64,000 nucleotides of DNA from an uncultured virus (IMG/VR IMGVR_UViG_3300031766_000002) (Duplodnaviria; Heunggongvirae; Uroviricota; Caudoviricetes): IMG/VR virus record IMGVR_UViG_3300031766_000002; one strand, given 5' to 3'. Both the position numbers and the translations under genes were made by a program. The notes beneath the pieces were generated by a model. It was not told where the DNA came from, ran no database searches, and saw only the letters and a program-made list of their open reading frames with translations. Every line of letters starts with the position of its first letter. Within the stretch, counting starts at the first letter, position 1. This document shows, piece after piece, positions 1,675-62,958 of the stretch.

Positions 1675-3012
1675 TTAAAATTTAAGCTTAATAGCCCTAG
1701 AAGTCCCTGCTAGTCCGAAGAAAACATCTTTACCTTTGACTGTAGTGCAAGTAGAATAACCAGTTCCAAGACTCATAATCCCAGAACCTTCTTTCACTGT
1801 AGAACAACCATCCTTAAACTGATACTCATAGTCCTCCCATTGGATCTCTTGAGTGAGTGGATTCACCCTAAAGCACTTAGTATCTCCCCAGAATGCACTG
1901 TAAAGCCATCCGTCAGGAGCGAGGTAACCGTGAAAGTTTTTATTTTTATTAGCTACCTTTAAATATTCTGCTGGCAAATCAATCTCCTCATAACTATCAT
2001 CAGCACAATTAATAATTAAAATCTTTTTGCCCGTCCTTGGTAGGCAGAATACCTTATTAACACTTGGAACATAAGTAGCTCCAACATACTTCACGCTAAA
2101 TCCAGAAACTCCAGAAGTGACAGGCTTACCTTCCAACAAGAAAGAGTCACCATTCTGATCTATCTTTAGAATCTTACTTCCTAAAGCTGGTGGCATATAA
2201 ACATTGCCATCTGAATCTGCTGCTGCTCCCCACACATGACCAAAGAATCCTGTTTGTGGAGGAGTGAATGACCCAATCTCACCCGTCTTAATATTTAAAG
2301 TATAAATTTTTAATGTCTTTGTATAAGATGGCATGTAGATAATACCATTAGCCCCTTCTGCACCAGATCTAATTTGAGGGCAAGAATTAAATTTCTTTTC
2401 TAAAGTAATCTCACCAGTTGATCTTTTTAACTTAGCGATAGAAGTAGAATACGCTGGTAAAAAATAAGTATAGCCATCAGAAGCTTCTACATTACCAATG
2501 AAACCATGACTCCCATCAGTATTTCTTTTAATAGAACCAGAAAGAGTATCTGTCTCAATATACATATCAGACTTGTAGCCTAACGAATGGATGACCCCAT
2601 TATCATCCATCGCCATCGTGCGAGTCTTTGTCAGATTACCGCTGATCTCGCCTTTTAAATACTCCAGCTTTGGCCAAAATGTTTTCGATGAGTCTAAAAA
2701 AAAACCTTCCGAACTCGACTCCGCGCTGGTGTATTCAGCGGAGGTTTCAGCACTCGTCTCCGCACTCGTCTCCGCACTCGTCTCCGCACTCGTCTCCCAA
2801 GGTGGCTCAGAACTTGACTCAGAACTTGACTCAGAACTACTGTATTCCGCGCTGGTGTATTCTGCACTAGAAGTACATTCAGAACTAGAAACCTCTAACT
2901 CAGCACTAGAAATAAGCTCAGAGCTTGATAAGTTATTTTTTAATCGTTTTAATTGATTTACTGAGGTCTCTAATGAGTCAATTACTAATGAGATTTGATC
3001 TGACGTTTTCAT
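1675..3012 (-). CDS. Hypothetical protein: N-terminal Ser/Thr/Glu-rich repeat tract followed by a probable beta-propeller
   Basis: ETSA/SSES repeats, then ~45-aa spaced G.(I/V)Y(M/F)(L)P motifs (DGYTYFLP, NGIIYMP, DGNVYMPP, NKVFCLP, DGWLY). Confidence 0.6.
   Translation of the reverse strand: MKTSDQISLVIDSLETSVNQLKRLKNNLSSSELISSAELEVSSSECTSSAEYTSAEYSSSESSSESSSEPPWETSAETSAETSAETSAETSAEYTSAESSSEGFFLDSSKTFWPKLEYLKGEISGNLTKTRTMAMDDNGVIHSLGYKSDMYIETDTLSGSIKRNTDGSHGFIGNVEASDGYTYFLPAYSTSIAKLKRSTGEITLEKKFNSCPQIRSGAEGANGIIYMPSYTKTLKIYTLNIKTGEIGSFTPPQTGFFGHVWGAAADSDGNVYMPPALGSKILKIDQNGDSFLLEGKPVTSGVSGFSVKYVGATYVPSVNKVFCLPRTGKKILIINCADDSYEEIDLPAEYLKVANKNKNFHGYLAPDGWLYSAFWGDTKCFRVNPLTQEIQWEDYEYQFKDGCSTVKEGSGIMSLGTGYSTCTTVKGKDVFFGLAGTSRAIKLKF
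2750..2797 (+). repeat. 12-bp tandem repeat GCACTCGTCTCC x4 (encodes ETSA on the minus strand), flanked by degenerate CTCAGAACTTGA and CGCTGGTGTATTC repeats
   Basis: Directly visible at 2750-2797, with related units extending over about 2720-2890. Confidence 0.9.
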
Positions 3013-3020
3013 GCTAATAT

Positions 3021-3049
3021 ATTCTAATAGAAGTTGGTTTAGTTGTCAA
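3021..3049 (-). promoter_or_regulatory. sigma70-type promoter, near-leaderless
   Basis: TTGACA-N17-TAGAAT, then 8 nt to the ATG at 3012. Confidence 0.7.
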
Positions 3050-3059
3050 GTTAATTTAT

Positions 3060-3135
3060 TGGTGCGCTCGGCGAGATTCGAACTCGCGACCAAGGGTTTA
3101 TGAGACCCCTGCTCTAACCACTGAGCTACAAGCGC
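3060..3135 (-). tRNA. tRNA with CAT anticodon (Ile2-like or elongator Met), CCA encoded
   Basis: GCGCTTG/CGAGCGC acceptor stem, GCTC-AGTGGTTA-GAGC D arm, GGGGT-CTCATAA-ACCCT anticodon arm, GCGAG-TTCGAAT-CTCGC T arm, ACCA end. The 1:72 pair is formed, so it is not an initiator. Confidence 0.95.
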
Positions 3136-3733: not shown

Positions 3734-3810
3734 TGGTAGCTGTGATGAGATTCGAACTCATACTGGACGGATTTTAAGTCCGTTGTCTCTGCCAATTGGA
3801 CTACACAGCC
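3734..3810 (-). tRNA. tRNA-Leu(TAA), CCA encoded, short variable loop
   Basis: GGCTGTG/CACAGCT acceptor stem, ACGGA-CTTAAAA-TCCGT anticodon arm, variable region CCAGT, ATGAG-TTCGAAT-CTCAT T arm, ACCA end. Confidence 0.93.
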
Positions 3811-9272: not shown

Positions 9273-9286
9273 GTGTAATATAAGAT

Positions 9287-41924: not shown

Positions 41925-44219
41925 TCAACTAAGAAAACTCATTTCGGCTAAATTTATCTTTGAGTTGTTTTTCGTCAACTCTTGGCATATAAATTTATTA
42001 ATCTGGTTGTCAAAACGATCTTGAAAGTCCACCAAATTTTTTGAAGAACGAGCGAATTTTTTTAGAAAACTCAGTGTAAAAACGACCTCTATATCACTCA
42101 GCCTCAAATCCTCATTAATCTTCTGTATCTTGTGGTATAGGATTCTAAAAATATCTTTTTTGCGAACCTCATTCAACACTAAGTTGCAATCAAATAGGGA
42201 TAATAATTCTTTAAAAATAGATGAGGTTGGAGAGTCCTCTTTAGAATTGAACCCCATTGATGCTATATTCTCTACCCCGCTTGTCACAAATATTTTGGCG
42301 TTAGAGAAGTCTGCTAGGTCACCATTTGACATCTGGAGCTTGCCATCTTTTAATATTTGAGCAAAAATACTCTTTACGGAAGGGTGTAGTTTATGGAAAT
42401 CATCAATAATAATAACACTATTAGGATGGATGTTGACCTTCTCACATAGAGAAGTATTGTTCATAACCTCTGGCAAGATCTTAAACTTAGCAAACTCGTC
42501 AGAAAAATGAACACCGCTATAGTTTAGCACATTTACCCCGCTTTTCTCAAGAGAGTCCTTCAAAGTTGAGCAGAAAAAACTTTTCCCGCTAGACTCAACC
42601 CCAGTAATGCAATAAATACTAGGAGCTGCACCCTTTTTATGCATCCCGTAATTAGATAGAGAGATAGATTCAATAAGAGAATCAATAATCTTGTCATTAC
42701 CTATAAACTTTTTCTTCAAGCTCACGGAGAGGTCAGATAAATTTTTTGTCTTCCTAAGAGGGTTTTCTTTCTTTGAGAAGAAGTCTTTAAGATGCTTCAT
42801 TGTGACATCTGGAGTTTCGGAATCCTTGTCGTCAGACCAGCCTGATAATTTTTCTGTTACAAACGACAATACCGATTCGGTCGAGGTTAAATCTATATCG
42901 CTATCTTTTATTTCTTGTTGTAATTCTTTGAACGAGCTATCATTACCCCAGTGAGAAACTTTAGCTTGCGCTCCACAATGATCAACCACATCAATTGCCT
43001 TATCTGGATAGAATTTGTTGGGCAGATACTTCTCACAAAAATCAATAACATGATCAACAAAATTTTCAGTGTACTTCACCGTATGAAAGTCTTCGTAGTA
43101 AGAAGTTATAGTAGGTAGAATCTCCTTCATCTGAAACTTAGAAGGCTCCTTAATAATAACCCTTTCGAAGCGACGATCTAAAGCAGAATCTTTTTTGATC
43201 GTGTTTGTATACTCATTAATTGTAGTAGCTCCTATACAACTAATCGTACCACGAGCAAGCTCTGGCTTAAGTATATTTGAAGCTTCTAGAGAATTTTCTG
43301 TAGTTCCTCCTGCTCCGACAAGAGTATGGACTTCATCAATAAACAAAATAATGTTTTCATACCTCTTAACTTCATCTACAAACTTTTCTAACCTTTCTTC
43401 GAACTGACCACGATACTGTGTTCCTGCAACCATACTAGATAAGCTAAGAGAATAGATAACTTTATTAGCAATAAGTTCTGGAGCTTCTCCGTTTACAATT
43501 TGAGATGCCAAGCCCTCAATCAAAGATGTCTTGCCTGTCCCTGCTGGCCCCACTAAAATCGCATTGGGCTTTTTCTTTCTACATAGGATCGTGGCTATCT
43601 CTGAGATTTTGTCATCAAAGTCTACTATTTTATCAAACTCTTGGCGGGAAGCTTTTAAATTTAAATTTTCTGCGAACTGATCAAGAGTTGGGTTTTCATC
43701 AAACATCCCAATCCATTTCCCAACCATGTCAAAAGAAATGTCATCAGGTAAGGAATGTTCTAATTCTGGTTTAACTTCTTCTTCGTCTCTTATAAAACGA
43801 GTTATAGATTCAACCATTTTATCCCTGTCATCTTTGTCAAGAATCCCAGCAAAAGCCTTTGGAGTAAACCCTTCGCTTAAGAAACAAAGAAGTATCGCTT
43901 CTGTGCTGACATAATCTAATTCAAATAACTCCCGCTGTATAAACTTACATTCATTAATAAGCTTATTCAATTTAGTAGAATATTTCCTACAAACAACTTT
44001 GTTGGGCTTCTTTTTATCAATAATTTTTTTAGAAGCCAGAAGCAAAGCATCCCTACAAAAGAATTGTTCAAAAAATTTTTCGCAAGATAAACTTAAGTCA
44101 TTAATGAATGCGTGAAAAAAAACATCTATATCAACCTTATTCCTTCCAAGGAATTCATTCAAATCTTGAGCATCATTAAGGATACAGGTTAATTGAGGAG
44201 TAAATGGTAAGTCGTTCAT
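41925..44219 (-). CDS. ClpA/ClpC-family AAA+ unfoldase
   Basis: Clp-N-like N-terminus; D1 GPAGTGKT, AGTQYRGQFEERL, LFIDEVH, GATT..EY, ALDRRF, PDKAID; degenerate D2; MGF loop. Confidence 0.88.
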   Translation of the reverse strand: MNDLPFTPQLTCILNDAQDLNEFLGRNKVDIDVFFHAFINDLSLSCEKFFEQFFCRDALLLASKKIIDKKKPNKVVCRKYSTKLNKLINECKFIQRELFELDYVSTEAILLCFLSEGFTPKAFAGILDKDDRDKMVESITRFIRDEEEVKPELEHSLPDDISFDMVGKWIGMFDENPTLDQFAENLNLKASRQEFDKIVDFDDKISEIATILCRKKKPNAILVGPAGTGKTSLIEGLASQIVNGEAPELIANKVIYSLSLSSMVAGTQYRGQFEERLEKFVDEVKRYENIILFIDEVHTLVGAGGTTENSLEASNILKPELARGTISCIGATTINEYTNTIKKDSALDRRFERVIIKEPSKFQMKEILPTITSYYEDFHTVKYTENFVDHVIDFCEKYLPNKFYPDKAIDVVDHCGAQAKVSHWGNDSSFKELQQEIKDSDIDLTSTESVLSFVTEKLSGWSDDKDSETPDVTMKHLKDFFSKKENPLRKTKNLSDLSVSLKKKFIGNDKIIDSLIESISLSNYGMHKKGAAPSIYCITGVESSGKSFFCSTLKDSLEKSGVNVLNYSGVHFSDEFAKFKILPEVMNNTSLCEKVNIHPNSVIIIDDFHKLHPSVKSIFAQILKDGKLQMSNGDLADFSNAKIFVTSGVENIASMGFNSKEDSPTSSIFKELLSLFDCNLVLNEVRKKDIFRILYHKIQKINEDLRLSDIEVVFTLSFLKKFARSSKNLVDFQDRFDNQINKFICQELTKNNSKINLAEMSFLS

Positions 44220-46780
44220 TTTTTATTAAGATCCCTAAGTTTCATCATGATCTTAGTATCTATAACTCTGGCTGAGTTCACAAAACTACTACCACGACCT
44301 TTGCTGGCATTCAAGATTAAAATGCAGTCTTTCGATATTTTGTATTCTGAGAGAAAGTCAGAAAGAGTGTCTCCCCTAGAGTTGTCCATCATCAGGAAAT
44401 TAGCGGAGCCTGTATTATCAGACCCCCTAATCATCATATACTTATTACCACTTTGAGAAACTTTCGTAAAAAAATCTTTTACTTGGCAAGCCACTTTAAA
44501 GGTTGTTCTTTCTGATATTTCCTCTATGTCTCTCAAACAACTCATGGAGCCAAATTCATCTTCGAAGCAGTCTTTCAAATCAAAAGAATAACTATAGCCT
44601 AGCAAGGTATTCTCGTACCACCAATTACAAAACTTCTGGAATGGCTTGTTTTTATCAAACATCTCCTTGTAGTTCTTGAAGTTCTTTTTGAAAGTGTTAA
44701 ATCTAGACTCTTTCATTATTGGGCGACCATCATCAGCAACAGCGTTGACCTTAATCACTTCCGATATCGCTTTTAAAATATCATCGCCAAACCTCTCTTT
44801 AAATAGATTAAAATTTCTCTTCTCTCTGTCTGTCAATATATTGAAAGCTTGAGCCTCTAAAACTAACCTGCCTCTTTTGTATGTAGACTCATCCATAGCT
44901 CCAGCTTGGATCAAAGCTGCTAGCACTGAAATGTTAATGCCACAATTTTTAGCAGCAGCAAATACATCATACTTACTTTGGAACCCGTCTGACCCCTTGA
45001 AAGACAAAAGACCCTCTTTGGATTTAGAAGAAATGCCTTTAATTCCATTAAGGCCATATCTAATATCATTACCCTCAATTGAAAAATCCATTTTCGATTT
45101 AAATAAATTAGGAGGTAATAATTTAATACCGAAGTAATCTAACTCTTCATGCACAGAAGTAACAACTTCAAGAGGTTCTGGGTCAAACTCAGAAGACTCA
45201 AGAACAGATAGAAAAAACTCTCTAGGGTATTTGTATTTTAGGTATACGGTCTTAGCTGCTAGTTCAGCATAAGCGAAACTATGTGACTTGTTAAATGAGT
45301 AATCAGCGGAAGCTTGTAACGCAGTCCAATAGAAATCACTGATCTGATCATCTAACCCTAAAGATTTTGCAGCATCATAAATTCTATCCTTCCACTTCGG
45401 CATCTCCTCTACTTTTTTCTTACCAACAATCCGACGAAGAGTTTCCGCTTCTTCTAAGCTTAGGCCAAAAACCTTATTGGCGATTTGCATCAACTGCTCT
45501 TGATACAAAATAACATTCTTAGACCAAGAAAGGATTTCGTCTAAATCTTCGTGGAGATTACTTGATAGAGGAGATTGTTTTTGACGAACATATTCATCAA
45601 CAAATTGCAAAGCACCCGGCCTAGCGAGAGCTACAACGTCAGAAAGTTCATTTAAATTGTCTGGCTTAACGTCTTGGCAAACCCTAAAGTTTGTATCCGC
45701 AGAGATCTGGAAGAGACCTTCTGGGTGATTATAGGTTTGGAGTTTTTCATATATAAATGGGTCATTAGGATCTATATCCTCTATGTTAATACCTATCTTG
45801 TCACAAGTCCTGTGAGCAATTGTTAACGTTCTAAGACCAAGGATGTCAAACTTAACCATAAGGTCAGCAACATCGTGCATGTTGTAGCCTGTAACCAAGT
45901 CTCCGTCTTTAGTCTTTTGAAGAGGTACGACATCTCCGATTGATTGAGAACAAATGGCGATGCCAGATGGATGAACTCCTGTATTTTTAATAAGATTCTC
46001 AATCCGCTTTGCATTAACAAAAGTTCTATTGTGCTTTTTCGCCCAAGCATCAAACTTTTCATTTTCCTGCCTTGCGTTTTCTAGAGATGAAACTTTACCA
46101 TGCAGTTTTGGAATCATGTCGCTAACTACATTAGCCTGATCTTCCTTTGCTTCATCAAAATATTTTGTAGCCTCTCTAATACAGAGCTTAGAACTGAAAG
46201 TATTAAAGGTTAAAATCTTCGCTGTCCTTCCCTCATGTTTTTGCTCAATGTATTGGATGACCCTTTGTCTTTGCTCATAACTAATATCCGAATCAACATC
46301 AGGAAGGAGACTACCAACAAGGAACTCTTTATTGCGCTTATCGTAAACTTTTTTAGCACGACTCTTCGAAACAAAACGCTCAAAGAACAAGTTGTGAGGG
46401 ATGGGGTCAATATTAGTCACCCCAAGCAAATACAAAACTAAAGACCCAGCAGCAGAACCGCGACCTGCTCCAGTAGGAATTTCATTCTCATGGCAAAAGT
46501 TTAGAACATCCCAATTCAATAAAATATAATCTGTAAAACCAAGCTCTTCAAAAGTTTCTAGTTCTTGTTTTGCACGATCAAAATATTGTTTTTTGTTATC
46601 ATACTTAGTGATACCCTTATCCCGCAAACCTTTACGGGTAAGCTCATACATAATTTCTTTAGTAGAGCTTTCTTTATCTAGACCAATACTACTCAATACA
46701 GATTCGCTGACAGAAGTCTTCGGTAATTCAACACCGATAGGCTCGCAATCATCATAAACAGAAAAACTTTCAAACATCAT
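44216..46780 (-). CDS. dnaE: DNA polymerase III alpha-type catalytic core (lacks the PHP domain)
   Basis: GAGRGSAAGSLVLYLLGVT.IDP, FERF, PDVDSD, HPSG, VKFDILGL, YQEQ, FNKSH, C-terminal OB fold. Confidence 0.93.
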   Translation of the reverse strand: MMFESFSVYDDCEPIGVELPKTSVSESVLSSIGLDKESSTKEIMYELTRKGLRDKGITKYDNKKQYFDRAKQELETFEELGFTDYILLNWDVLNFCHENEIPTGAGRGSAAGSLVLYLLGVTNIDPIPHNLFFERFVSKSRAKKVYDKRNKEFLVGSLLPDVDSDISYEQRQRVIQYIEQKHEGRTAKILTFNTFSSKLCIREATKYFDEAKEDQANVVSDMIPKLHGKVSSLENARQENEKFDAWAKKHNRTFVNAKRIENLIKNTGVHPSGIAICSQSIGDVVPLQKTKDGDLVTGYNMHDVADLMVKFDILGLRTLTIAHRTCDKIGINIEDIDPNDPFIYEKLQTYNHPEGLFQISADTNFRVCQDVKPDNLNELSDVVALARPGALQFVDEYVRQKQSPLSSNLHEDLDEILSWSKNVILYQEQLMQIANKVFGLSLEEAETLRRIVGKKKVEEMPKWKDRIYDAAKSLGLDDQISDFYWTALQASADYSFNKSHSFAYAELAAKTVYLKYKYPREFFLSVLESSEFDPEPLEVVTSVHEELDYFGIKLLPPNLFKSKMDFSIEGNDIRYGLNGIKGISSKSKEGLLSFKGSDGFQSKYDVFAAAKNCGINISVLAALIQAGAMDESTYKRGRLVLEAQAFNILTDREKRNFNLFKERFGDDILKAISEVIKVNAVADDGRPIMKESRFNTFKKNFKNYKEMFDKNKPFQKFCNWWYENTLLGYSYSFDLKDCFEDEFGSMSCLRDIEEISERTTFKVACQVKDFFTKVSQSGNKYMMIRGSDNTGSANFLMMDNSRGDTLSDFLSEYKISKDCILILNASKGRGSSFVNSARVIDTKIMMKLRDLNKK

Positions 46781-47391
46781 AAATTCATTTCTTTCCTAAG
46801 TGCAGAAAAAACCTTAAAGCACATCTTGTTATCATAAAGCGCATCATGCAGTCTATCTTCTTCGAACTCTATCCCAAAAAATTTTAGTAACTGATTTTGA
46901 GAGACTCTAGCCTTTAGAGATCGGTCATGAATTATTTTATACTGCCAACTAAGTAAGTCTTTATTTGGCTTTTTTAAATCCTCTCTATACGCCTTGCCGA
47001 AAGCTCTAGTATCATAGATCCGATTAAGATAAGAATAATCAGGAGTTTCCCCCAATAACCTTTGCATGCCAGCCACCATATAGACATCAAAGCCCAATAA
47101 ATTTTGTCCAACAACTTTATATTCTGGATTAAACAAATCAACTTTAAAATCAGCCCAAACCTTCTTCAAAGGCTCCTTTCTCTCGTTATACTTATCCCAA
47201 CTAAAACCAGTCAAATGCTCTACCTTTTTATTAATTTGTAGATCCTTGTGACTAATATATCTATCGTTCTCCTTGATAACTCTATTGCCTTCGCAAATCA
47301 ACCATGAAACCTGCCAAGTGCGAGAAGAATGTAGGTTAAGACCCTCAGTCTCCGTGTCGAAGACTAAATATTTTTGATTATGTGGTAGCAT
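46777..47391 (-). CDS. DEDDh 3'-5' exonuclease (Pol III epsilon-like)
   Basis: VFDTETEG, GQNLLGFD, YDT, LHDALYD. Confidence 0.88.
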   Translation of the reverse strand: MLPHNQKYLVFDTETEGLNLHSSRTWQVSWLICEGNRVIKENDRYISHKDLQINKKVEHLTGFSWDKYNERKEPLKKVWADFKVDLFNPEYKVVGQNLLGFDVYMVAGMQRLLGETPDYSYLNRIYDTRAFGKAYREDLKKPNKDLLSWQYKIIHDRSLKARVSQNQLLKFFGIEFEEDRLHDALYDNKMCFKVFSALRKEMNL

Positions 47392-48079
47392 CTTTATAAG
47401 ACTCCCAACAGAACTCGTCTGAACAGAAGTGATTTAAGTTTGGGTTTTGGAAAGTTGGAGATTTACCCCCAGATCTATTACAAGCTGCTTTGTACATTTG
47501 TAAAGCAGCAAAATCATCTTTGTCACGATGAAGAATAGTTTTAACAGCTTGAGTCTTCACCCCAAGACTATCAATAATAGACTTAATTTGGAAGTCAAAA
47601 GGATGATTATTGTCTTCAATAAAGTAAACTGGATCTAAGTGCTTAATATCTATGTGAGATAAACCAAAATGAAACAAATTATTAAAAATATAAGAGTCGT
47701 AAAATGGGACACAAACTTTTATATTCTTGAAATCACTTTCGTCATAGTTAGACAAAATCAAAGAATTTCTATCATCTAAAGATGCATTAGAAAACATCCT
47801 TTTTAAATCCCGTATCCCTTCGTTATTTTTGGCGAAAAGAGCTAGCTTACTAGGTTTTTCACTGTAATCCCCCTCTGTGTTAACAACAGATATCCTTAAT
47901 CCGAAAACAAATGGAATTCCTTCGTCTTGGAAGAGCTTATTAAATACTCTAAACCCATAGAAAGTATCCTCTAACAGAATAACCCTTTCTAATTCGTTGG
48001 TTTGAGCTATGTCTAATATCTTCTCTGAAGTAAGAATAGACTTTCCTATACTGAATTGACTCTTGAAAAGAGGAACCAT
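47378..48079 (-). CDS. Stand-alone DnaE N-terminal PHP domain (metal ligands degenerate)
   Basis: VPLFKSQFSIGKSIL (cf. HLH.HS.YS.LDG), LEDTFYGF, FGLRI, LALFAKNNEG..DL. Confidence 0.75.
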   Translation of the reverse strand: MVPLFKSQFSIGKSILTSEKILDIAQTNELERVILLEDTFYGFRVFNKLFQDEGIPFVFGLRISVVNTEGDYSEKPSKLALFAKNNEGIRDLKRMFSNASLDDRNSLILSNYDESDFKNIKVCVPFYDSYIFNNLFHFGLSHIDIKHLDPVYFIEDNNHPFDFQIKSIIDSLGVKTQAVKTILHRDKDDFAALQMYKAACNRSGGKSPTFQNPNLNHFCSDEFCWESYKDATT

Positions 48080-51715: not shown

Positions 51716-51933
51716 TCTCCCACCTCCTTCTCTTGAGATATTTCAACCAACTTAGTTAGAGCCATATCAACACAAGCGTTGTCTGTTTTAGTGGCGAAAG
51801 TAGGATGACCTGATTCATTTATGTAAAATAAAAAGAAGCCCTTGTTCCCCCCACTTGGAGAACCAGTGCAGTCGAACAATTTAGTAAGAATACTTTGAGG
51901 TAAAGTATTTTCTGTTTTATCAAAAAGGCTCAT
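51712..51933 (-). CDS. Hypothetical protein
   Basis: ORF track, translationally coupled. Confidence 0.6.
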   Translation of the reverse strand: MSLFDKTENTLPQSILTKLFDCTGSPSGGNKGFFLFYINESGHPTFATKTDNACVDMALTKLVEISQEKEVGE

Positions 51934-52337
51934 ATTACGTCCAACTTGTTTAGTAGATCTTCATTGAGAGTATCCTTCTCCAGTATTCTTACAAGTCTAA
52001 TTTTGTTAATTTCACAAAAATACTCCTTCTTTTCATCTCTCTGCAATTGCGACAAGAAATTCTGCCTAGAGTTAGAATGAAAAAATTTATTATATTTGTA
52101 ATGCTGATTGCCATCAACCTCTATTGCAAGTTTTTTGTTTGCATTATAAAAGTCTATAGTCATTCTAGTCCCAAGAACAGGAAGCTCTTCAAAAACTATA
52201 TCAGAGATCCAGTGTGAGTATAAAAGGTCTTTTACTCTTTTTTGGATTTTACTACGACATTTCTTGTCCCAGTTAATTAAATATTTGGAAGAGTTTTTTA
52301 GCTTCTGTTCACGACCAGTTGTCGTCAAAAAAATCAT
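51930..52337 (-). CDS. DUF559/Vsr-like endonuclease
   Basis: DFY....LAIEVDG.QH, RD..K...C....I.L.RI. Confidence 0.75.
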   Translation of the reverse strand: MIFLTTTGREQKLKNSSKYLINWDKKCRSKIQKRVKDLLYSHWISDIVFEELPVLGTRMTIDFYNANKKLAIEVDGNQHYKYNKFFHSNSRQNFLSQLQRDEKKEYFCEINKIRLVRILEKDTLNEDLLNKLDVI

Positions 52338-53461
52338 ACAAAAATATTCTCAGCAATGAACAAGTGCATCCCTTTGGTGATTTCTTCATTGTTCTCCAAA
52401 AGGTCATAGAGAGATTTCATTCCTTGATACTTCTCTTGAACTTCGATCCCCCTATCACCAAGATACTTGATAAGCTCGTCATCAATCTTGAACCAAGAAC
52501 CAGACTTTTCAATGAAGTTCCACATTAGAAGCATTTCGATAATCTCACGCTCAATCCAAATAGATTTTCCGTCTAATCGACCATGCTTAATTGGATATCG
52601 GATACGCATTCCAGTACTTTCGTTCGTGGACTTTTGAATATGAACTTTAGCGTAATGACCTATAATAGAATTCTCTGGACTTGGCCTTGCTTTTTGATCT
52701 TGTAAAATTAGATCAGATTGATTTCTTTTTTCAAAGTTTATGATCCAATCTGGATAGTGAAGAGCTGCATTGCCACCGCTAGAATTAGTTTGGTTGTTTG
52801 GATCACTAGCAGCATACTGACTCGTTTTGATAGTTGACCGAACCTGAGAGATCATAATGCACATATGACCAAACTTACCCATACCAAGACTAACTCGCTT
52901 CAAAAAATCAGAAGTTAGAGCAGCACCTGCTGCAACTTTTGCTGCATCACTAGTGGTCTTCTCTAAATCAGATTTAGGGAGCAAGCCATCCATACTGTCG
53001 ATGACAATGCAAAATCTTTCTTTGTCTGGATTATTCCTTAGTAATTCTCTAAGGCCATCGAAAACTGTATCATAAATGTTACACTCCCAGACAAGACAAG
53101 TTCCTAACTCCCAATCGTCTGGATCACTTACAAATTTTAAACCAGAACGTTTCTGGATATCTTCTGATAAACGACCTTCTGCTTTAATATAGAGACCCTT
53201 TGTGTCTTCTACAGTCTCTAGCATGTTCTTCATAACATGAAGGGCTTCGTTCGTTTTACCTCCCTCGTTGCAGCCAATAAAACGCTGTAGTCCAGCACCA
53301 AGCCCACCACCGACAAACTGGTCTAGAATTAGAGAGCCAGTTGAAACTAAATAAGGCTTTGCTGTTTCTTCAAAGTTATAATGAAAATCTTTATTGCTCT
53401 TAAAAAACTTCGACATAAATTCCGAAGTACCAACTTTTTCTTTTACACTTTTCTTACTCAT
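52334..53461 (-). CDS. recA: RecA-family recombinase (divergent phage type)
   Basis: STGSLILD..GGG, G.NEGGKT, IKAEG, VIDS, ISQVR, SGGNAALHY, GSWF. Confidence 0.85.
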   Translation of the reverse strand: MSKKSVKEKVGTSEFMSKFFKSNKDFHYNFEETAKPYLVSTGSLILDQFVGGGLGAGLQRFIGCNEGGKTNEALHVMKNMLETVEDTKGLYIKAEGRLSEDIQKRSGLKFVSDPDDWELGTCLVWECNIYDTVFDGLRELLRNNPDKERFCIVIDSMDGLLPKSDLEKTTSDAAKVAAGAALTSDFLKRVSLGMGKFGHMCIMISQVRSTIKTSQYAASDPNNQTNSSGGNAALHYPDWIINFEKRNQSDLILQDQKARPSPENSIIGHYAKVHIQKSTNESTGMRIRYPIKHGRLDGKSIWIEREIIEMLLMWNFIEKSGSWFKIDDELIKYLGDRGIEVQEKYQGMKSLYDLLENNEEITKGMHLFIAENIFV

Positions 53462-59504: not shown

Positions 59505-61151
59505 TTACCCTTCGCAAGATTTACATTCCATCATAGATCTTGCTAGCTCTTGACTAGGATTAGCACTTCTCTGATAATAGAAACCTTTAATACCGTTCTG
59601 CCATCCATAAATTAAAAGTTGATTTACTTCTTTCGCAGGAGCTTTGGGGGCGACCATAATGTTAAGAGATTGACCTTGATCAATATACTTTTGTCTTTGG
59701 GCTGCTTGAATAACAATTTCTTTTTGGCTAATTTCCCCAAAAGTTTTAAATACTTCTTTCTCTTCCTCAGAAAAGAATGATAAATGCTGCACTGACCCTC
59801 CTTTTTCCAAGATGCTCATCCAAACATCATCGTTATTTTTACCCTTCTCTGCTAATAGCGTTTCGAGGTATGGATTCCTAAATGTGAATTTGCCTTTAGC
59901 GAGATCTTTAGTAAAATAATTCCCGTTGAGAGGTTCGATAGATGGAGAAACCTGACCCAAGATAAAGGAGCTACTTGTAGTTGGAGCTATAGCTAAGGTG
60001 GTGGTATTTCGACGGCCATACCCCTCACAATACATAGGCTCTCCTAAACTTAGGGATAATTCTTCTGTAGCTTCATCTGCCCGACTACGGATAACCTTCC
60101 AAATAGAGCTATTTTCCATTTTAGCCTCCATGCTTTCAAACCCAATCATCTTGCTTTGTAGGTAAGAGTGCCAACCAAGAACTCCCATACCCAAAGCCCT
60201 ATGACGCTTGGCAAAATTATGAGAGGACTCCATGAATGGAATGTTCGTTGTTTTTATGATATACTCCTCCATTACTGCATCAAGAAATGCAACTAATGTC
60301 TCAATAGCGTCTGTCTTTACAATGTCATCCCATCTAACTAGATTCAAAGAAGATAAACAGCAAACAAAAGACTCATCTTCTTTGGATGGCAAGCTGATCT
60401 CGTTGCAAAGATTAGAAGCATAGATCTTCATGTCTTTGTCTTTATAGCAGTCGGGAGCATTCTTATTCGCTGTATCTTGAAAAAATATGTACGGGTAACC
60501 AGTCTCAAAACGCTTTCTTATTACAGAAGCCCAAAGCTGACGTTTTTCTGGATCGCCATCAATCATACTTTGCATCCAATTATCAGTGACAGTAACAGCA
60601 AAAGACATGTCTTGAATAGCATTACCCTCGCTCTTTATCCGAAGAAACTCTTTGACATCAGGATGTTCAATAGGGAGGTAAGCTGCAAAAGAACCACGAC
60701 GGACATTACCCTGAGAAACAACCGCAGCGACCTTATCGAATAACTCCATAAAATGGACTGCCCCAGATGATTGACCACCAGAGTTTATTGATGCCCCACG
60801 CTCACGAAGATCACCAAAGTAAGCAGAAGTCCCTGACCCATGCTTAGTCTGCATTCCAACCTCAGACTGTTTAGCTAAGATGCCATCCATTCTGTCAGGA
60901 ACGTAGACTCCGTTACAGGATATGGGTAGTCCACGATCACGACCAAAATTAGACCAGACAGGGGAAGCTAAGGAATAAAATCCCTGCTTCATATACGACT
61001 CAAACTTGTCAGCAAACCCATCCATGCTTAGATACGCTTCAGCAGTATCTGCAATATCACGAATCCTCTGCTCTGGAGTTTCACCCTTCTTTAGATATCC
61101 CCTCTCAAGAAATAATCTTGAGTCATCATTTAGCCAATAGTAGTCTGTCAT
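59505..61151 (-). CDS. nrdA: Class I ribonucleotide reductase large subunit (short, no ATP cone)
   Basis: PISC, RRG..AAY, SNLCNEI, VCCLSS, AIAPT.SSS, QGQSLN, YYQRS, C-terminal CKSCEG. Confidence 0.93.
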   Translation of the reverse strand: MTDYYWLNDDSRLFLERGYLKKGETPEQRIRDIADTAEAYLSMDGFADKFESYMKQGFYSLASPVWSNFGRDRGLPISCNGVYVPDRMDGILAKQSEVGMQTKHGSGTSAYFGDLRERGASINSGGQSSGAVHFMELFDKVAAVVSQGNVRRGSFAAYLPIEHPDVKEFLRIKSEGNAIQDMSFAVTVTDNWMQSMIDGDPEKRQLWASVIRKRFETGYPYIFFQDTANKNAPDCYKDKDMKIYASNLCNEISLPSKEDESFVCCLSSLNLVRWDDIVKTDAIETLVAFLDAVMEEYIIKTTNIPFMESSHNFAKRHRALGMGVLGWHSYLQSKMIGFESMEAKMENSSIWKVIRSRADEATEELSLSLGEPMYCEGYGRRNTTTLAIAPTTSSSFILGQVSPSIEPLNGNYFTKDLAKGKFTFRNPYLETLLAEKGKNNDDVWMSILEKGGSVQHLSFFSEEEKEVFKTFGEISQKEIVIQAAQRQKYIDQGQSLNIMVAPKAPAKEVNQLLIYGWQNGIKGFYYQRSANPSQELARSMMECKSCEG

Positions 61152-62123
61152 TTAAAACAAGTCGTCTGCGTTGAACGTCTGCGAATTTTTTGAATACTCA
61201 ACTGGTCGAGCATAAAAGAAGTCGGTGGCATTATTGCCAAGCAACTCCTCTTCAAACCAGATGGTATCTTTCAGCAGATTTTTGTCAACATCAAAAGCTT
61301 GTTTAAAGCCTATTTTATCCAAAGAATCGTTAATTCTATTTTTAATGAACTCCTTGAGTACAATCGCATTCAATCCCTTCTCACGAATACCGTTAATCAT
61401 CCAATCCACGATCTTGCTTTCAGCATTAAAAGCTTGTTGAGCTTCGTCAAGAACACGCTCTTCCAACTCTTCATCAAAAAGCTCAGGATGTTCTTCACGA
61501 ATAGTGTTAATGATCTTCATCCCAACGAAAGCATGAAGGTTCTCTTCATTACGAGTATACTTAACTTGTTGGTCAGTGTCTTTTAACACATTCTTATGAC
61601 GAGCAAACCAGTTTATGACGTAAAATTGAGAAAATAGCGACACGTTCTCTACAAAAAGAGTAAATAGGATTAAAGCATAAACATATTGCTTCTTGCTGTT
61701 CTTGTAGAACTTATGGGTATACTTCCGCAAATAATTAACCCGACCCTCAATAAAATCTAGTTTTAGGTTCTCCTCAAATACTTCTTCTAAACCCAAAACC
61801 TCAAGCAAGCGTTCATAAGCGTTATTGTGAATAACTTCCACGTTTGCCATCACAAAACCCAAATCACTTAATGATGGGTGAGGCAAATTGTCCCCCAGCT
61901 TACTCCAAAACTTTTTAACAGCAACTTCGATCTGCCCAATAGCAGAAAGAGTTCTTACGATTATCTCTTTTTCTCTTTCATCAAGCACCACGTTGAAGTC
62001 CTGAATATCAGAAGCAAAACTGAATTCTTTGTCGGTCCAAAACCCGTTGTGCATTGCTTCGATAAAATCTCCTGCCCAAGAATAGTGGTCAGGCTTCCGT
62101 GATACTTGCTCTTCAAAAATCAT
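61152..62123 (-). CDS. nrdB: Class I ribonucleotide reductase small subunit
   Basis: FW...E, QIE, EVIHNNAY, VEN.SLFSQF, EENLH, TDFF..RPVEY. Confidence 0.93.
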   Translation of the reverse strand: MIFEEQVSRKPDHYSWAGDFIEAMHNGFWTDKEFSFASDIQDFNVVLDEREKEIIVRTLSAIGQIEVAVKKFWSKLGDNLPHPSLSDLGFVMANVEVIHNNAYERLLEVLGLEEVFEENLKLDFIEGRVNYLRKYTHKFYKNSKKQYVYALILFTLFVENVSLFSQFYVINWFARHKNVLKDTDQQVKYTRNEENLHAFVGMKIINTIREEHPELFDEELEERVLDEAQQAFNAESKIVDWMINGIREKGLNAIVLKEFIKNRINDSLDKIGFKQAFDVDKNLLKDTIWFEEELLGNNATDFFYARPVEYSKNSQTFNADDLF

Positions 62124-62169
62124 GTCTCATCTATTTACACAATTGACAAAAATGGGCAAGGAAAAAATG

Positions 62170-62280
62170 AAAAAAGTTGGCGAAGCCATTGTATTAATAC
62201 GAACGTAGTGAGTATTAATATAATACGAATCCTAACAGCACTGTAAGGATTCGTATCCTTACTAATGCGGCTTCCAATAC
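62170..62280 (-). ncRNA. Candidate structured small RNA / attenuator leader
   Basis: Begins right after TTGACA-N16-TATAAT. The 5' and 3' ends pair, there are two internal hairpins, and it ends in U6. Confidence 0.55.
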
Positions 62281-62284
62281 GTCT

Positions 62285-62312
62285 ATTATATTGACAAAGA
62301 AAAATGTGTCAA
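62285..62312 (-). promoter_or_regulatory. Consensus sigma70 promoter
   Basis: TTGACA (62312-62307), N16, TATAAT (62290-62285). Confidence 0.8.
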
Positions 62313-62370
62313 CAAAAAAATTTTACTTGATTTTTTGCTAAAAAATCCCTAGCATAATCGGTAGCTAAGT

Positions 62371-62958
62371 ATGGATAATGAATCTACTGACCCCGAATTA
62401 ACAACCTTGATCAAAGAGGAAGATCACGAGGAAGCATTGAATCTTTTAATATGCAGACACTCTGGCATATATATTGATATGGTCAGGAGGTACGCATCTA
62501 AGTCTCTCCCCATGAATGACATAGCGGATATTATCAACGACAAAGATTATATTATCTATAAAGCAGCTTTAGATTATGATGAAAATAAAGCTAAATTTTC
62601 GACGCACGTTGGGAATAAAGCCAAATACCTTTGTTTAAGCAGAAAGACTGCAAGGAAAAAAAATAAAACCACCTTATCTTTCGATTCTATAGACTATTCA
62701 GAGGAGTCAAGTGATCTACACCCAGATCAAAGCTGTGAAATTAGAGAGAGCTTCTCCGCGATTATTGATTTAATCAATAATCATCGTGACGAAAGAGTAA
62801 AAATTATTTTTAAAGAAAGATATTTTGGAGGAGAGAGGGGTAAGCTCAACACTTGGAAGAATATTGGCGATAAGATCGGAATATCTGCTCAAGGATGTAT
62901 AAACATCCACGATAAATCTTTAAAAGAATTTAAAAATCAAATTAAAAAAAATGCATAA
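62371..62958 (+). CDS. Phage sigma-70-family RNA polymerase sigma factor
   Basis: D.EL..LIK...EEAL..L; region 2 KAALDYD..KAKFSTH; region 4 HTH R...I...RY......TWKNIG..IGIS. Confidence 0.8.
   Translation: MDNESTDPELTTLIKEEDHEEALNLLICRHSGIYIDMVRRYASKSLPMNDIADIINDKDYIIYKAALDYDENKAKFSTHVGNKAKYLCLSRKTARKKNKTTLSFDSIDYSEESSDLHPDQSCEIRESFSAIIDLINNHRDERVKIIFKERYFGGERGKLNTWKNIGDKIGISAQGCINIHDKSLKEFKNQIKKNA

Follow-up and report, generated by a model that had tools for sequence, protein, structure and literature searches.

What is made from a consensus promoter that points into a gap between two phage genes, and does the gap act as RNA or as DNA? The question is raised by a stretch of 64 kb from an uncultured virus (IMG/VR record IMGVR_UViG_3300031766_000002), part of a large marine phage of 37% GC, which we call the window and whose coordinates are used throughout. 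In it, 247 bp separate nrdB, a gene of ribonucleotide reductase (RNR), from a divergent gene of 195 aa that resembles sigma-70-family factors, and the element in question lies in this gap on the minus strand. A preliminary description, made from the letters of the sequence alone, had seen there a structured RNA of about 105 nt with mutually exclusive hairpins, and had offered an abundant small RNA, a conformational attenuator of RNR and a replication origin as explanations. We find a promoter, a tandem motif array and two hairpins that are conserved among relatives, with covariation in the helices of both hairpins, and we tentatively read the stretch as a member of an undescribed family of immediate-early small RNAs of uncultured marine phages.

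A consensus promoter points into a folded, non-coding stretch

The element and the region that follows it have these parts, in the direction of transcription:

62285..62320, minus strand: strong sigma70-type promoter, with a T7 tract (62320-62314), the -35 TTGACA (62312-62307), a 16-nt spacer and the -10 TATAAT (62290-62285)
62269..62281, minus strand: transcript start, predicted at about 62278 from the position of the -10, including the initial ACGTA copy of the motif and, as the 5' strand of a closing helix, GGAAGCC (62275-62269)
62223..62262, minus strand: tandem motif array with a period of 26 nt, made of unit 1, GTAAGGATACGAATCCTTAC (62262-62243), the linker AGTGCTGTT and unit 2, AGGATTCGTAT (62233-62223)
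62189..62223, minus strand: AU-rich hairpin, with the 5' arm TTATATTAATAC (62223-62212), an 11-nt loop, TCACTACGTTC (62211-62201), and the 3' arm GTATTAATACAA (62200-62189)
62170..62188, minus strand: small GC hairpin, TGGC-TTC-GCCA (62188-62178), followed by AC and T6 (62175-62170), weakly terminator-like
62124..62167, minus strand: promoter-like region of nrdB, with a second T6 (62167-62162), TTGCCC (62158-62153) and GTGTAA (62140-62135), 11 nt from the ATG

The promoter scored 12/12 in the promoter scan and is the sole exact TTGACA-N16-18-TATAAT of the window; shuffled versions held 0.08 such sites on average, and at least one in 7/100 cases. With TTGACA and TATAAT 16-18 nt apart it qualifies, by sequence, as a sigma70-type promoter, and the preliminary description was right to see a minus-strand sigma70 consensus pointing into non-coding sequence. 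The approximately 105 nt downstream of it are strongly folded: the RNA 62280-62165 has a minimum free energy (MFE) of -32.2 kcal/mol, against -18.1 +/- 2.9 for shuffled sequences (z -4.87; 0/200 shuffles as good).

Rfam 15 gave no gathering-score match at the locus, the window's only gathering-level matches being two tRNAs near 3-4 kb. At E <= 10 the segment 62100-62400 had no match on the nrdB-sense strand and four weak ones on the opposite strand, the best with 23.2 bits against a gathering score of 52.5. ARAGORN and Rfam placed no tRNA or tmRNA at the element (the ARAGORN genes are only at 3060-3135 and 3734-3810), which bears out the earlier impression that it is neither a tRNA nor a known riboswitch.

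The element is shared by a family of nrdB loci

Relatives were sought by scanning IMG/VR with NrdB, which matched at least 600 stretches, at least 597 of them confirmed; the best 80 (79-99% identity) were taken. The 260 nt upstream of nrdB are strongly divergent among these loci, to the point that NrdB proteins 92-93% identical can go with wholly different intergenic sequence. A clear homologue of the window's element was present in 11 loci (L001-L010 and L023). A covariance model, R1, built from the element's 3' part, was then run on the window and on 56 of the 80 loci, leaving out the 11 already aligned and 13 that were identical or nearly so upstream by eye. It found 15 further loci at E <= 0.04, all on the nrdB-sense strand, and no match in the other 41 loci searched. 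All but one of the 15 matches end about 50-55 nt before the start of nrdB; that of L076 lies about 175 nt upstream. Exact-pattern scans gave 14 contigs of IMG/VR with one match each and at least 120 stretches of metagenomes, 65 of the 120 listed having at least 9/12 complementary arm positions. The pooled matches hold at least 36 distinct nrdB-linked 3' modules. The family set comprises at least 39 distinct units that run complete from their -35 up to the ATG of nrdB; two more loci are too short upstream.

The family copies lie between the sigma-like gene and nrdB, and the model finds one copy in the window. In whole phage records it has one match each in G002 (118 kb) and G003 (94 kb), and none elsewhere in either.

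The promoter is a constant part of this family. It is present in 39/39 distinct relatives with enough upstream sequence, with TTGAC-N in all, a spacer of 16 nt in 37 and of 17 nt in 2, and a -10 that reads TATAAT in 20/39 and a near variant in the others. A T-rich tract lies 5' of it and, beyond this tract, about 10 bp upstream of the minus-strand -35, relatives carry TTGAC/TTGAT in inverted orientation, consistent with a promoter for the sigma-like gene placed back to back with this one. That the promoter stays fixed, at a 16-17-nt spacer, while the sequence between it and the hairpin is reshuffled speaks for a small RNA. An operator palindrome across the -10 was also considered and set aside: only 5/39 members, 3 of them from one sublineage, have inverted arms of 5 bp or more of which one lies wholly upstream of the -10.

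Both hairpins covary

The palindrome GTATTAATA(C), present twice at a distance of 21 bp, makes up the AU-rich hairpin of the window. Across the family its inner stem, ATTAAT, and its loop, TC(A/T)CT(N)CGTTC, are invariant or nearly so, and its outer and closing pairs covary. The GC hairpin varies in sequence and keeps its pairing (GGC/GCC, TGC/GCA, GCC/GGC, GTG/CAC, GAGC/GCTC, GTC/GAC).

Two alignments were used to measure this. A MAFFT alignment of 36 sequences (32 distinct) had 94.9% of its cells paired and 8/16 pairs changed on both sides, including 6 of the 12 pairs of the AU stem; one stem pair is AU in 12 sequences, UA in 11 and CG in 8, and the loop-closing pair is CG in 21 and UA in 9. 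The model-fitted alignment, which leans to structure by construction, holds 51 matches (46 distinct), with 95.2% of cells paired and 12/16 pairs changed on both sides (8/12 in the AU stem and 4/4 in the GC hairpin). In both alignments 0/500 shuffles reached the observed values, and slid controls of the model-fitted one were 30-48% paired. Covariation in two alignments therefore identifies the AU and GC hairpin helices as genuine conserved pairings. Structural conservation, which the preliminary description had proposed to test in relatives, is thus present: the unit is kept and two helices covary.

A tandem array that changes by whole units

The repeats of the window's array include an inverted repeat, I1, with 16-nt arms that are 94% complementary, and a direct repeat, TAATACGAA, present twice at 26-nt spacing; exact GGATWCGWAT is matched in the array only. 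The family motif can be written approximately as R-GG-N-T-W-CG-W-A, a quasi-palindrome of about 13 nt repeated at 13- or 26-nt spacing. A regular-expression count gave 1-8 copies per member, in a set with nrdB identities of about 80% or more. Relatives differ from one another by whole units of the array. The order of parts is that of the window: the first ACGTA comes just after the -10, the array follows, and the last motif copy always adjoins the AU hairpin module (alignment A1, columns 1-7). Some members have 26-nt palindromic units, such as L009 with three GGATACGTAT at 26-nt spacing, and the L086, L088 and L094 types have bare 13-nt direct repeats without the complementary arm. A likeness of the motif to the T-arm of tRNAs was a by-eye impression with no match to a tRNA model, and a small open reading frame (ORF) from an ATG at the hairpin junction was dropped, its frame length being very different in the window, L009 and L112.

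The MFE fold of the window's RNA is a three-way junction made of the closing helix GGAAGCC/GGCUUC, a 12-bp stem of two motif units and an AU stem of 9-12 bp that encloses the loop UCACUACGUUC. A local 8-bp hairpin, GUAAGGAU-ACGA-AUCCUUAC, competes with the stem of the two units, which has 11-12 bp. The stems named in the preliminary description are thus all in the sequence. At equilibrium, the pair probability is 0.98 for the long stem against 0.007 for the local hairpin, and the suboptimal fold that is forced to contain the latter has -29.3 instead of -32.2 kcal/mol, a cost of 2.9 kcal/mol. The two stems compete because one quasi-palindrome stands in tandem, so that a copy may either fold on itself or pair with the adjacent one. 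They are not conserved as a pair across the family, and some relatives have no complementary arm. The mutually exclusive hairpins hence exist, but as a by-product of tandem palindromes and not as a conserved switch.

The pairing of the first nucleotides of the RNA with its last ones had a similar fate. In the window the closing helix has pair probabilities of 0.79-1.0, and it recurs in the window's sublineage and a few others with wobble-compatible changes (GGAGCC/GGCTCC, GGAGTC/GGCTTT, CGGAGC/GCTCCG). It is absent in the L009, L112 and L023 types and broken in L132. As a family feature we rejected it: only 2/39 members beat 95% of shuffled 5' segments, and in the window itself 7% of the shuffles equal it.

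The 3' end and a separate start for nrdB

The T6 tract after the GC hairpin lies 47 nt ahead of nrdB, much as had been noted (a U6 tract, with nrdB about 45 nt on). How far it resembles a terminator differs between members. In the window, a terminator scan did not list the site because the local hairpin by the T-run has just 4 pairs (UGGC/GCCA). Moreover, GGCTTC (62187-62182) doubles as the 3' strand of the closing helix, which out-competes the GC hairpin (probability 0.002) and thereby removes it from the window's fold, so that the T6 is at best a weak terminator. Elsewhere in the family the stem of the GC hairpin reaches 7 pairs (L009, L194) or 6 pairs (L107, L112). At least 5 T within the 8 nt after the hairpin, on the nrdB-sense strand, were found in 28/39 members; two more, where the script had missed the hairpin, have T-runs by eye, four members have 4 T, and 5/39, the L008 and L023 types included, have an A-rich tail in place of the T-run. 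In these five the RNA must therefore continue into nrdB. A sublineage formed by L076, L136 and L214 is without the GC hairpin; its AU hairpin is followed by a self-complementary T/A run, T8-AG-A7, and nrdB comes about 170 nt further on, behind a longer leader.

Downstream of the T-run, nrdB has a conserved start motif. GTGTAA is kept in all 73 related loci in which nrdB could be aligned from residue 1, and in 4/7 other loci it lies about 60-80 nt before the start. It begins 17 nt before the ATG in 30/39 family members and 15-16 nt before it in 9/39; its distances from the hairpin cluster at 65-66 and 75-81 nt, which agrees only in part with helical phasing by a step of 11 bp. In the window, 11/25 GTGTAA sites (44%) lie 6-30 nt upstream of the ATG of an ORF of at least 60 aa, against a mean of 7% for 89 control hexamers of the same composition. 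Apart from nrdB, these gene-start sites are at 9273 on the plus strand and at 53448, 41150, 37201, 36863, 34807, 32573, 17007, 11028 and 7235 on the minus strand, and GTGTAA is found ahead of structural genes as well as of nrdB. GTGTAA probably serves as a promoter element specific to the phage, and the neighboring sigma-like protein may be what reads it. As a promoter it would leave mRNAs with very short leaders or none. Since nrdB has a promoter-like element of its own, RNR expression need not depend on read-through, which weakens the idea of an attenuator; a separate start downstream also means that the element can stand alone as a unit.

These observations bear on the possibility that the element is the cis-acting leader of an early nrdB-nrdA transcript, either an attenuator whose motif binds a factor (as with TRAP or PyrR) or an antitermination hairpin of the nut/put kind for the replication operon. 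Such a leader would be expected where the element lies, after an early promoter, ahead of the first terminator-like site and at the start of a co-oriented block of about 20 kb. In the window and its sublineage, the GC hairpin would be kept from forming, because its 5' arm and loop pair with a 5' segment overlapping one of the motif copies, and the three variants of the closing helix given above retain this antiterminator-like pairing. Read-through is also obligatory in the five members that have lost the T-run, and one contig from an RNA library spans 61965-62145 and so reaches upstream of GTGTAA, a weak hint only. Yet the antiterminator-like helix is missing or broken in the types named above and rarely better than chance, the promoter-like element of nrdB follows right after the T-run, there is no conserved junction resembling a ligand pocket and no Rfam match to a riboswitch or leader, and the copy number of the array changes freely, unlike in tuned attenuators. 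Conserved mutually exclusive helices, one of them a terminator, are not found across the 39 members. We thus regard a cis leader as rather unlikely, and the conformational attenuator of RNR is not supported in the form put forward earlier, its antiterminator-like helix not being conserved across the family and nrdB having its own promoter-like element.

A small RNA, weighed against a DNA element

The reading that we tentatively prefer, a small RNA, can be spelled out as follows. Host RNA polymerase would start at the consensus sigma70 promoter, the strongest of the region, and would give a transcript of about 105 nt here and, judging by the spacings, of about 80-150 nt in relatives. Its 5' module would be the fast-evolving tandem array, R-GG-N-U-W-CG-W-A, whose copy number and arrangement differ between close relatives; its 3' module would comprise the AU hairpin with the near-invariant loop UC(A/U)CU(N)CGUUC, the small GC hairpin and usually a U-run. 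Hairpin and U-run would stop part of the transcription, and the pair of 3' hairpins would give the RNA its end and its stability. The T-tracts would sit at the UP-element position of the next promoter, in a composite of terminator and promoter like the PeSLs discussed below, and nrdB would then be transcribed from its own GTGTAA-type promoter. With its repeated motif the RNA might bind a protein or another RNA at several identical sites, as a decoy, a sponge or a scaffold, and the conserved AU hairpin might serve as a fixed element of recognition or stability. We infer the ends of the transcript, its termination and its action in trans from this arrangement. A function at the RNA level is favored by the kept promoter, the one-sided T-run after a covarying hairpin, the fixed asymmetric loop, the single copy and the separate promoter-like element of nrdB.

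Several observations weigh against a small RNA. The sense and antisense strands fold equally well: the sense strand is more stable in 19/39 members, with a mean difference of -0.03 kcal/mol. This lack of strand asymmetry means that the structural signal is that of DNA palindromes. Among stem mismatches, A.C on the sense strand is the most frequent and would be G:U on the antisense (9/46 cells at one pair); one stem variant shows the reverse wobble direction. Covariation in a palindrome can also be obtained from template-switch correction or from a dimeric DNA-binding protein, and the symmetry can persist by template switching without selection on RNA. The terminator is weak in the window, with its four pairs, its absence from the scan and its low probability, and it is replaced by an A-rich tail in five members. 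The model has no match in G004 (104 kb, 94% complete), a relative with another upstream type, which makes the element dispensable or replaceable. Neither a scan with the loop complement nor a comparison of gene content among three genomes pointed to a partner. As an antisense seed, the loop complement was matched at 10 sites of the window when up to 2 mismatches were allowed, with an expectation of 11.9, the sole exact site being the loop itself; and of 37 ORFs common to G002 and G003 and not found in G004, the 15 also present in the window match repair proteins, ThyX (thymidylate synthase), a cupin, a sugar epimerase or nothing, three genomes being too few for such a comparison. Finally, the 1-kb stretch around the element is present in 20 public runs from 16 studies, 4/20 of them RNA libraries; these four runs, available as contigs, give no cover over 62146-62300, which is uninformative and not negative.

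Part of this evidence would suit an element that works as DNA, whether as an operator array for divergent early promoters or as an origin of the iteron or T4 type, the RNA being incidental or a primer. T4 oriF and oriG and the lambda ori are transcription-primed or iteron-type phage origins, and our element resembles them in lying in non-coding sequence next to replication genes, with a promoter directed into repeats and a segment rich in AT. It also stands at a strand switch, directly before the block for nucleotide metabolism and replication. The GC skew, which the preliminary description had proposed to compute, changes sign at the sigma/nrdB gap, but this change follows gene orientation. 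The element has direct and inverted repeats and a very AT-rich core, in which the 21 bp between the two copies of GTATTAATA equal two helical turns. Its folding is without strand asymmetry and its mismatch variants are wobble pairs on either strand. In relatives of two other upstream types, D and E, the gap holds other quasi-palindromes, which a consensus promoter on the opposite strand reads, so that orientation to transcription is not fixed; and there is a single copy per genome.

Other features fit a DNA element poorly. Unlike in classical iterons, the 13/26-bp motif spacing is out of helical phase, and no initiator-like gene was recognized next to the element. The stem varies in a compensated manner, with at least five versions in close relatives, around a fixed asymmetric centre of 11 nt, a pattern that points to a folded single strand rather than to two half-sites of a protein. 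A covarying GC hairpin followed by a T-run on one strand is needless for an origin or an operator. The motif occurs nowhere else in the window and is thus not the operator of a regulon. NrdR-controlled nrd promoters have tandem 16-bp NrdR boxes; the box consensus was matched nowhere in the window, even with up to 3 mismatches allowed, and such a promoter was rejected. Altogether, we hold action at the DNA level to be doubtful.

Comparison with known systems

Three described kinds of element share part of this layout. The PeSLs of T4-type phages are stem-loops immediately upstream of an early sigma70-type promoter, a composite of terminator and promoter (PMC4122927). They are described as an A-run, GC, loop, GC and T-run before a near-consensus sigma70 promoter in a hypervariable intergenic region. 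The element has the same stem-loop before a promoter, reading AATGGC-TTC-GCCA, T-runs, then TTGCCC or TTGAC, then GTGTAA. PeSLs occur in many dispersed copies flanking variable ORFs; the element differs in being single-copy (in the window and in the records of 94-118 kb) and in what separates its own promoter from the stem-loop, namely about 80 nt that hold the array and the conserved hairpin and no ORF.

The likeness raises the possibility that the locus is a promoter/terminator junction and nothing else, a PeSL-like cassette whose spacer is filled by slippage-prone tandem palindromes that template switching, and not selection, maintains. The stem-loop, T-run and sigma70-type promoter agree with the PeSL description (PMC4122927), the region is hypervariable even between loci with nearly identical NrdB, and the array varies by whole units. 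However, the 11-nt loop and the inner stem are invariant or nearly so in spite of diverged flanks, the last motif copy always adjoins the hairpin, the unit is not dispersed, with one copy in the window and per record and a single consensus promoter in the window, and unrelated loci of the Paenibacillus type also have a near-identical hairpin after a sigma70-type promoter. A mere junction is, on this evidence, very improbable.

The second kind is the type III antitoxin, ToxI, whose arrays are described as a -35/-10 promoter, tandem nucleotide repeats with a unit of 36 nt and a short palindromic terminator (PMC3401426). A phage can escape ToxIN by expanding a pseudo-ToxI mimic (PMC5449768). The element shows the order of the ToxI loci, namely promoter, tandem repeats, short palindrome and next gene; its copy number differs between close relatives, and it is carried by a phage and expected to be expressed during infection. 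It differs in that the next gene is nrdB and not an endoribonuclease of the ToxN, CptN or TenpN type, in its unit of 13 or 26 nt against the 36 nt reported, and in the additional conserved AU hairpin, so that the two are likened by layout and not by repeat sequence. A stand-alone phage mimic would need no toxin gene; the nrdB neighbor lowers the case for membership among ToxI, not the analogy.

By this analogy, the small RNA could be a decoy, made in bulk from the strongest promoter, that soaks up an RNA-binding defense of the host or a target of takeover, which we rate as a long shot. A candidate target would be the endoribonuclease of a toxin-antitoxin or abortive-infection system, as for the pseudo-ToxI of PhiTE. 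If copy number and motif version tracked an arms race, this would explain why the array changes fastest within an otherwise conserved region. Against a decoy of this sort, the repeat unit is far shorter than that of ToxI and no toxin-type gene follows.

Protein-sponge RNAs of the CsrB/RsmZ type consist of a series of hairpins with a repeated short motif, whose GGA core defines the sites for CsrA. The element resembles them as a short RNA with a strong promoter, a repeated motif in hairpins and a terminator at its end. A GGA sponge for CsrA-type proteins was nonetheless rejected: the units read GGA, GGG, GGU or AGA, their invariant letters are GG..U.CG, and there is no match to an Rfam family.

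A phage early non-coding unit beside a composite of terminator and promoter is thus already known as a kind. A fixed hairpin joined to a motif array that expands freely could not be placed in any described family, and a limited, not exhaustive, search of the full-text literature found no description of such an element among the titles listed.

Genes around the element and features of other loci

The genes and the divergent promoter-like site next to the element are:

62327..62355, plus strand: promoter-like site of the sigma-like gene, with TTGATT, 17 nt and TAGCAT, divergent from the strong promoter and back to back with it across a common A/T tract
62371..62958, plus strand: sigma-70-family-like gene, 195 aa, divergent from nrdB; PHROG 36 (transcriptional regulator), E 1e-6
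61152..62123, minus strand: nrdB, 323 aa, ATG at 62123; Pfam Ribonuc_red_sm, E 1.9e-45
59505-61151, minus strand: nrdA; Pfam Ribonuc_red_lgC, E 2.1e-95

The sigma-like protein has no Pfam match. Its match to the NCBIfam model sigma70-ECF (extracytoplasmic function), with E 1.1e-5 and 25.1 bits, is below the cut-off of 42.9 and spans profile positions 1-164 of 165, and its matches to ECF sigma factors in the PDB are weak. In relatives the equivalent position is taken by a homologue of 202 aa (L037, 2179-2787). Contigs of the sigma-like gene from RNA libraries begin at 62301, 62329 and 62381. The first two starts are upstream of the one expected from TTGATT-N17-TAGCAT, so the divergent site does not account for them; they overlap the -35 and the spacer of the strong minus-strand promoter, and may come from another start site, from read-through or from DNA carried over in the library.

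On the other side, nrdB heads a co-oriented minus-strand block of about 20 kb devoted to nucleotide metabolism and replication, in which it is followed by nrdA and by genes for Hsp20, glycosyltransferases, a UvsX-like recombinase, an HNH endonuclease, a DnaB-like helicase, a primase, an exonuclease, a DnaE-like polymerase and a Lon-like protease. The replicative polymerase appears as three adjoining ORFs (44216-48079 and 51930-52337, minus strand), for an N-terminal piece that resembles a polymerase, an exonuclease subunit and a DnaE-like body that is 28% identical to DnaE-like proteins of Streptomyces phages. The HNH gene, of the homing type, lies between those of the UvsX-like protein and the helicase. 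Cultured phages are distant: their closest NrdB match is 61% and their polymerase match 28%, and megablast of 2.5 kb around the locus gave no DNA match to them. With the 247-bp gap as query, blastn returned short chance-level pieces only (best E 0.2), none on the hairpin among the 20 matches listed.

Related or look-alike features were seen at other loci. In the upstream types D and E (for example, L037 at 2788-3001, L018 and L039), which are without the hairpin, ACGT-rich or AACGTT-type quasi-palindromes fill the same gap. Their consensus promoter (TTGACA-N16-TACAAT in L037, or with TATAAT) is on the opposite strand, next to the nrdB promoter, and reads about 115 nt of quasi-palindromes into the sigma-like gene; the control region is thus rebuilt, its strong promoter facing the other way.

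Unrelated, Paenibacillus-type loci (L234 at 2921-3030, from a Paenibacillus sp.; L142/L152; L172) have a sigma70-type promoter and, about 50-75 nt further on in the same orientation, a near-identical hairpin with an AT-rich stem and the loop TCACTACGTTC, with a GATACGTTGG-type word after it. The setting is a non-coding stretch of 900 bp in a prophage-like region, with an integrase 1.2 kb off. These loci were chosen by pattern, so their model scores are not independent evidence, and the likeness may reflect a common module or convergence.

Lastly, arrays of the direct repeat GTGTTAATAC were seen in L104, L141, L171/L188, L122/L175 and L138 and in L215, L218 and L233, the latter from one Bacteroidales metagenome-assembled genome. 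Spacers such as TCACTTCGTTC resemble the hairpin loop, and several contigs come from one genome; the arrays look like an iteron or a dispersed repeat family.

What the element may mean for these phages

The phages that carry the element are common in marine viromes and metagenomes, and the family is undescribed and well delimited, and can be searched for with the model R1 and the alignments A1 and A2. If it works as DNA, the element marks a control hub, possibly the origin, of the replication module. If, as we tentatively favor, it works as RNA, this RNA would probably be among the first products of these phages, alongside the sigma-like factor, and would offer a tractable case of RNA-based host takeover or counter-defense in uncultured marine phages.

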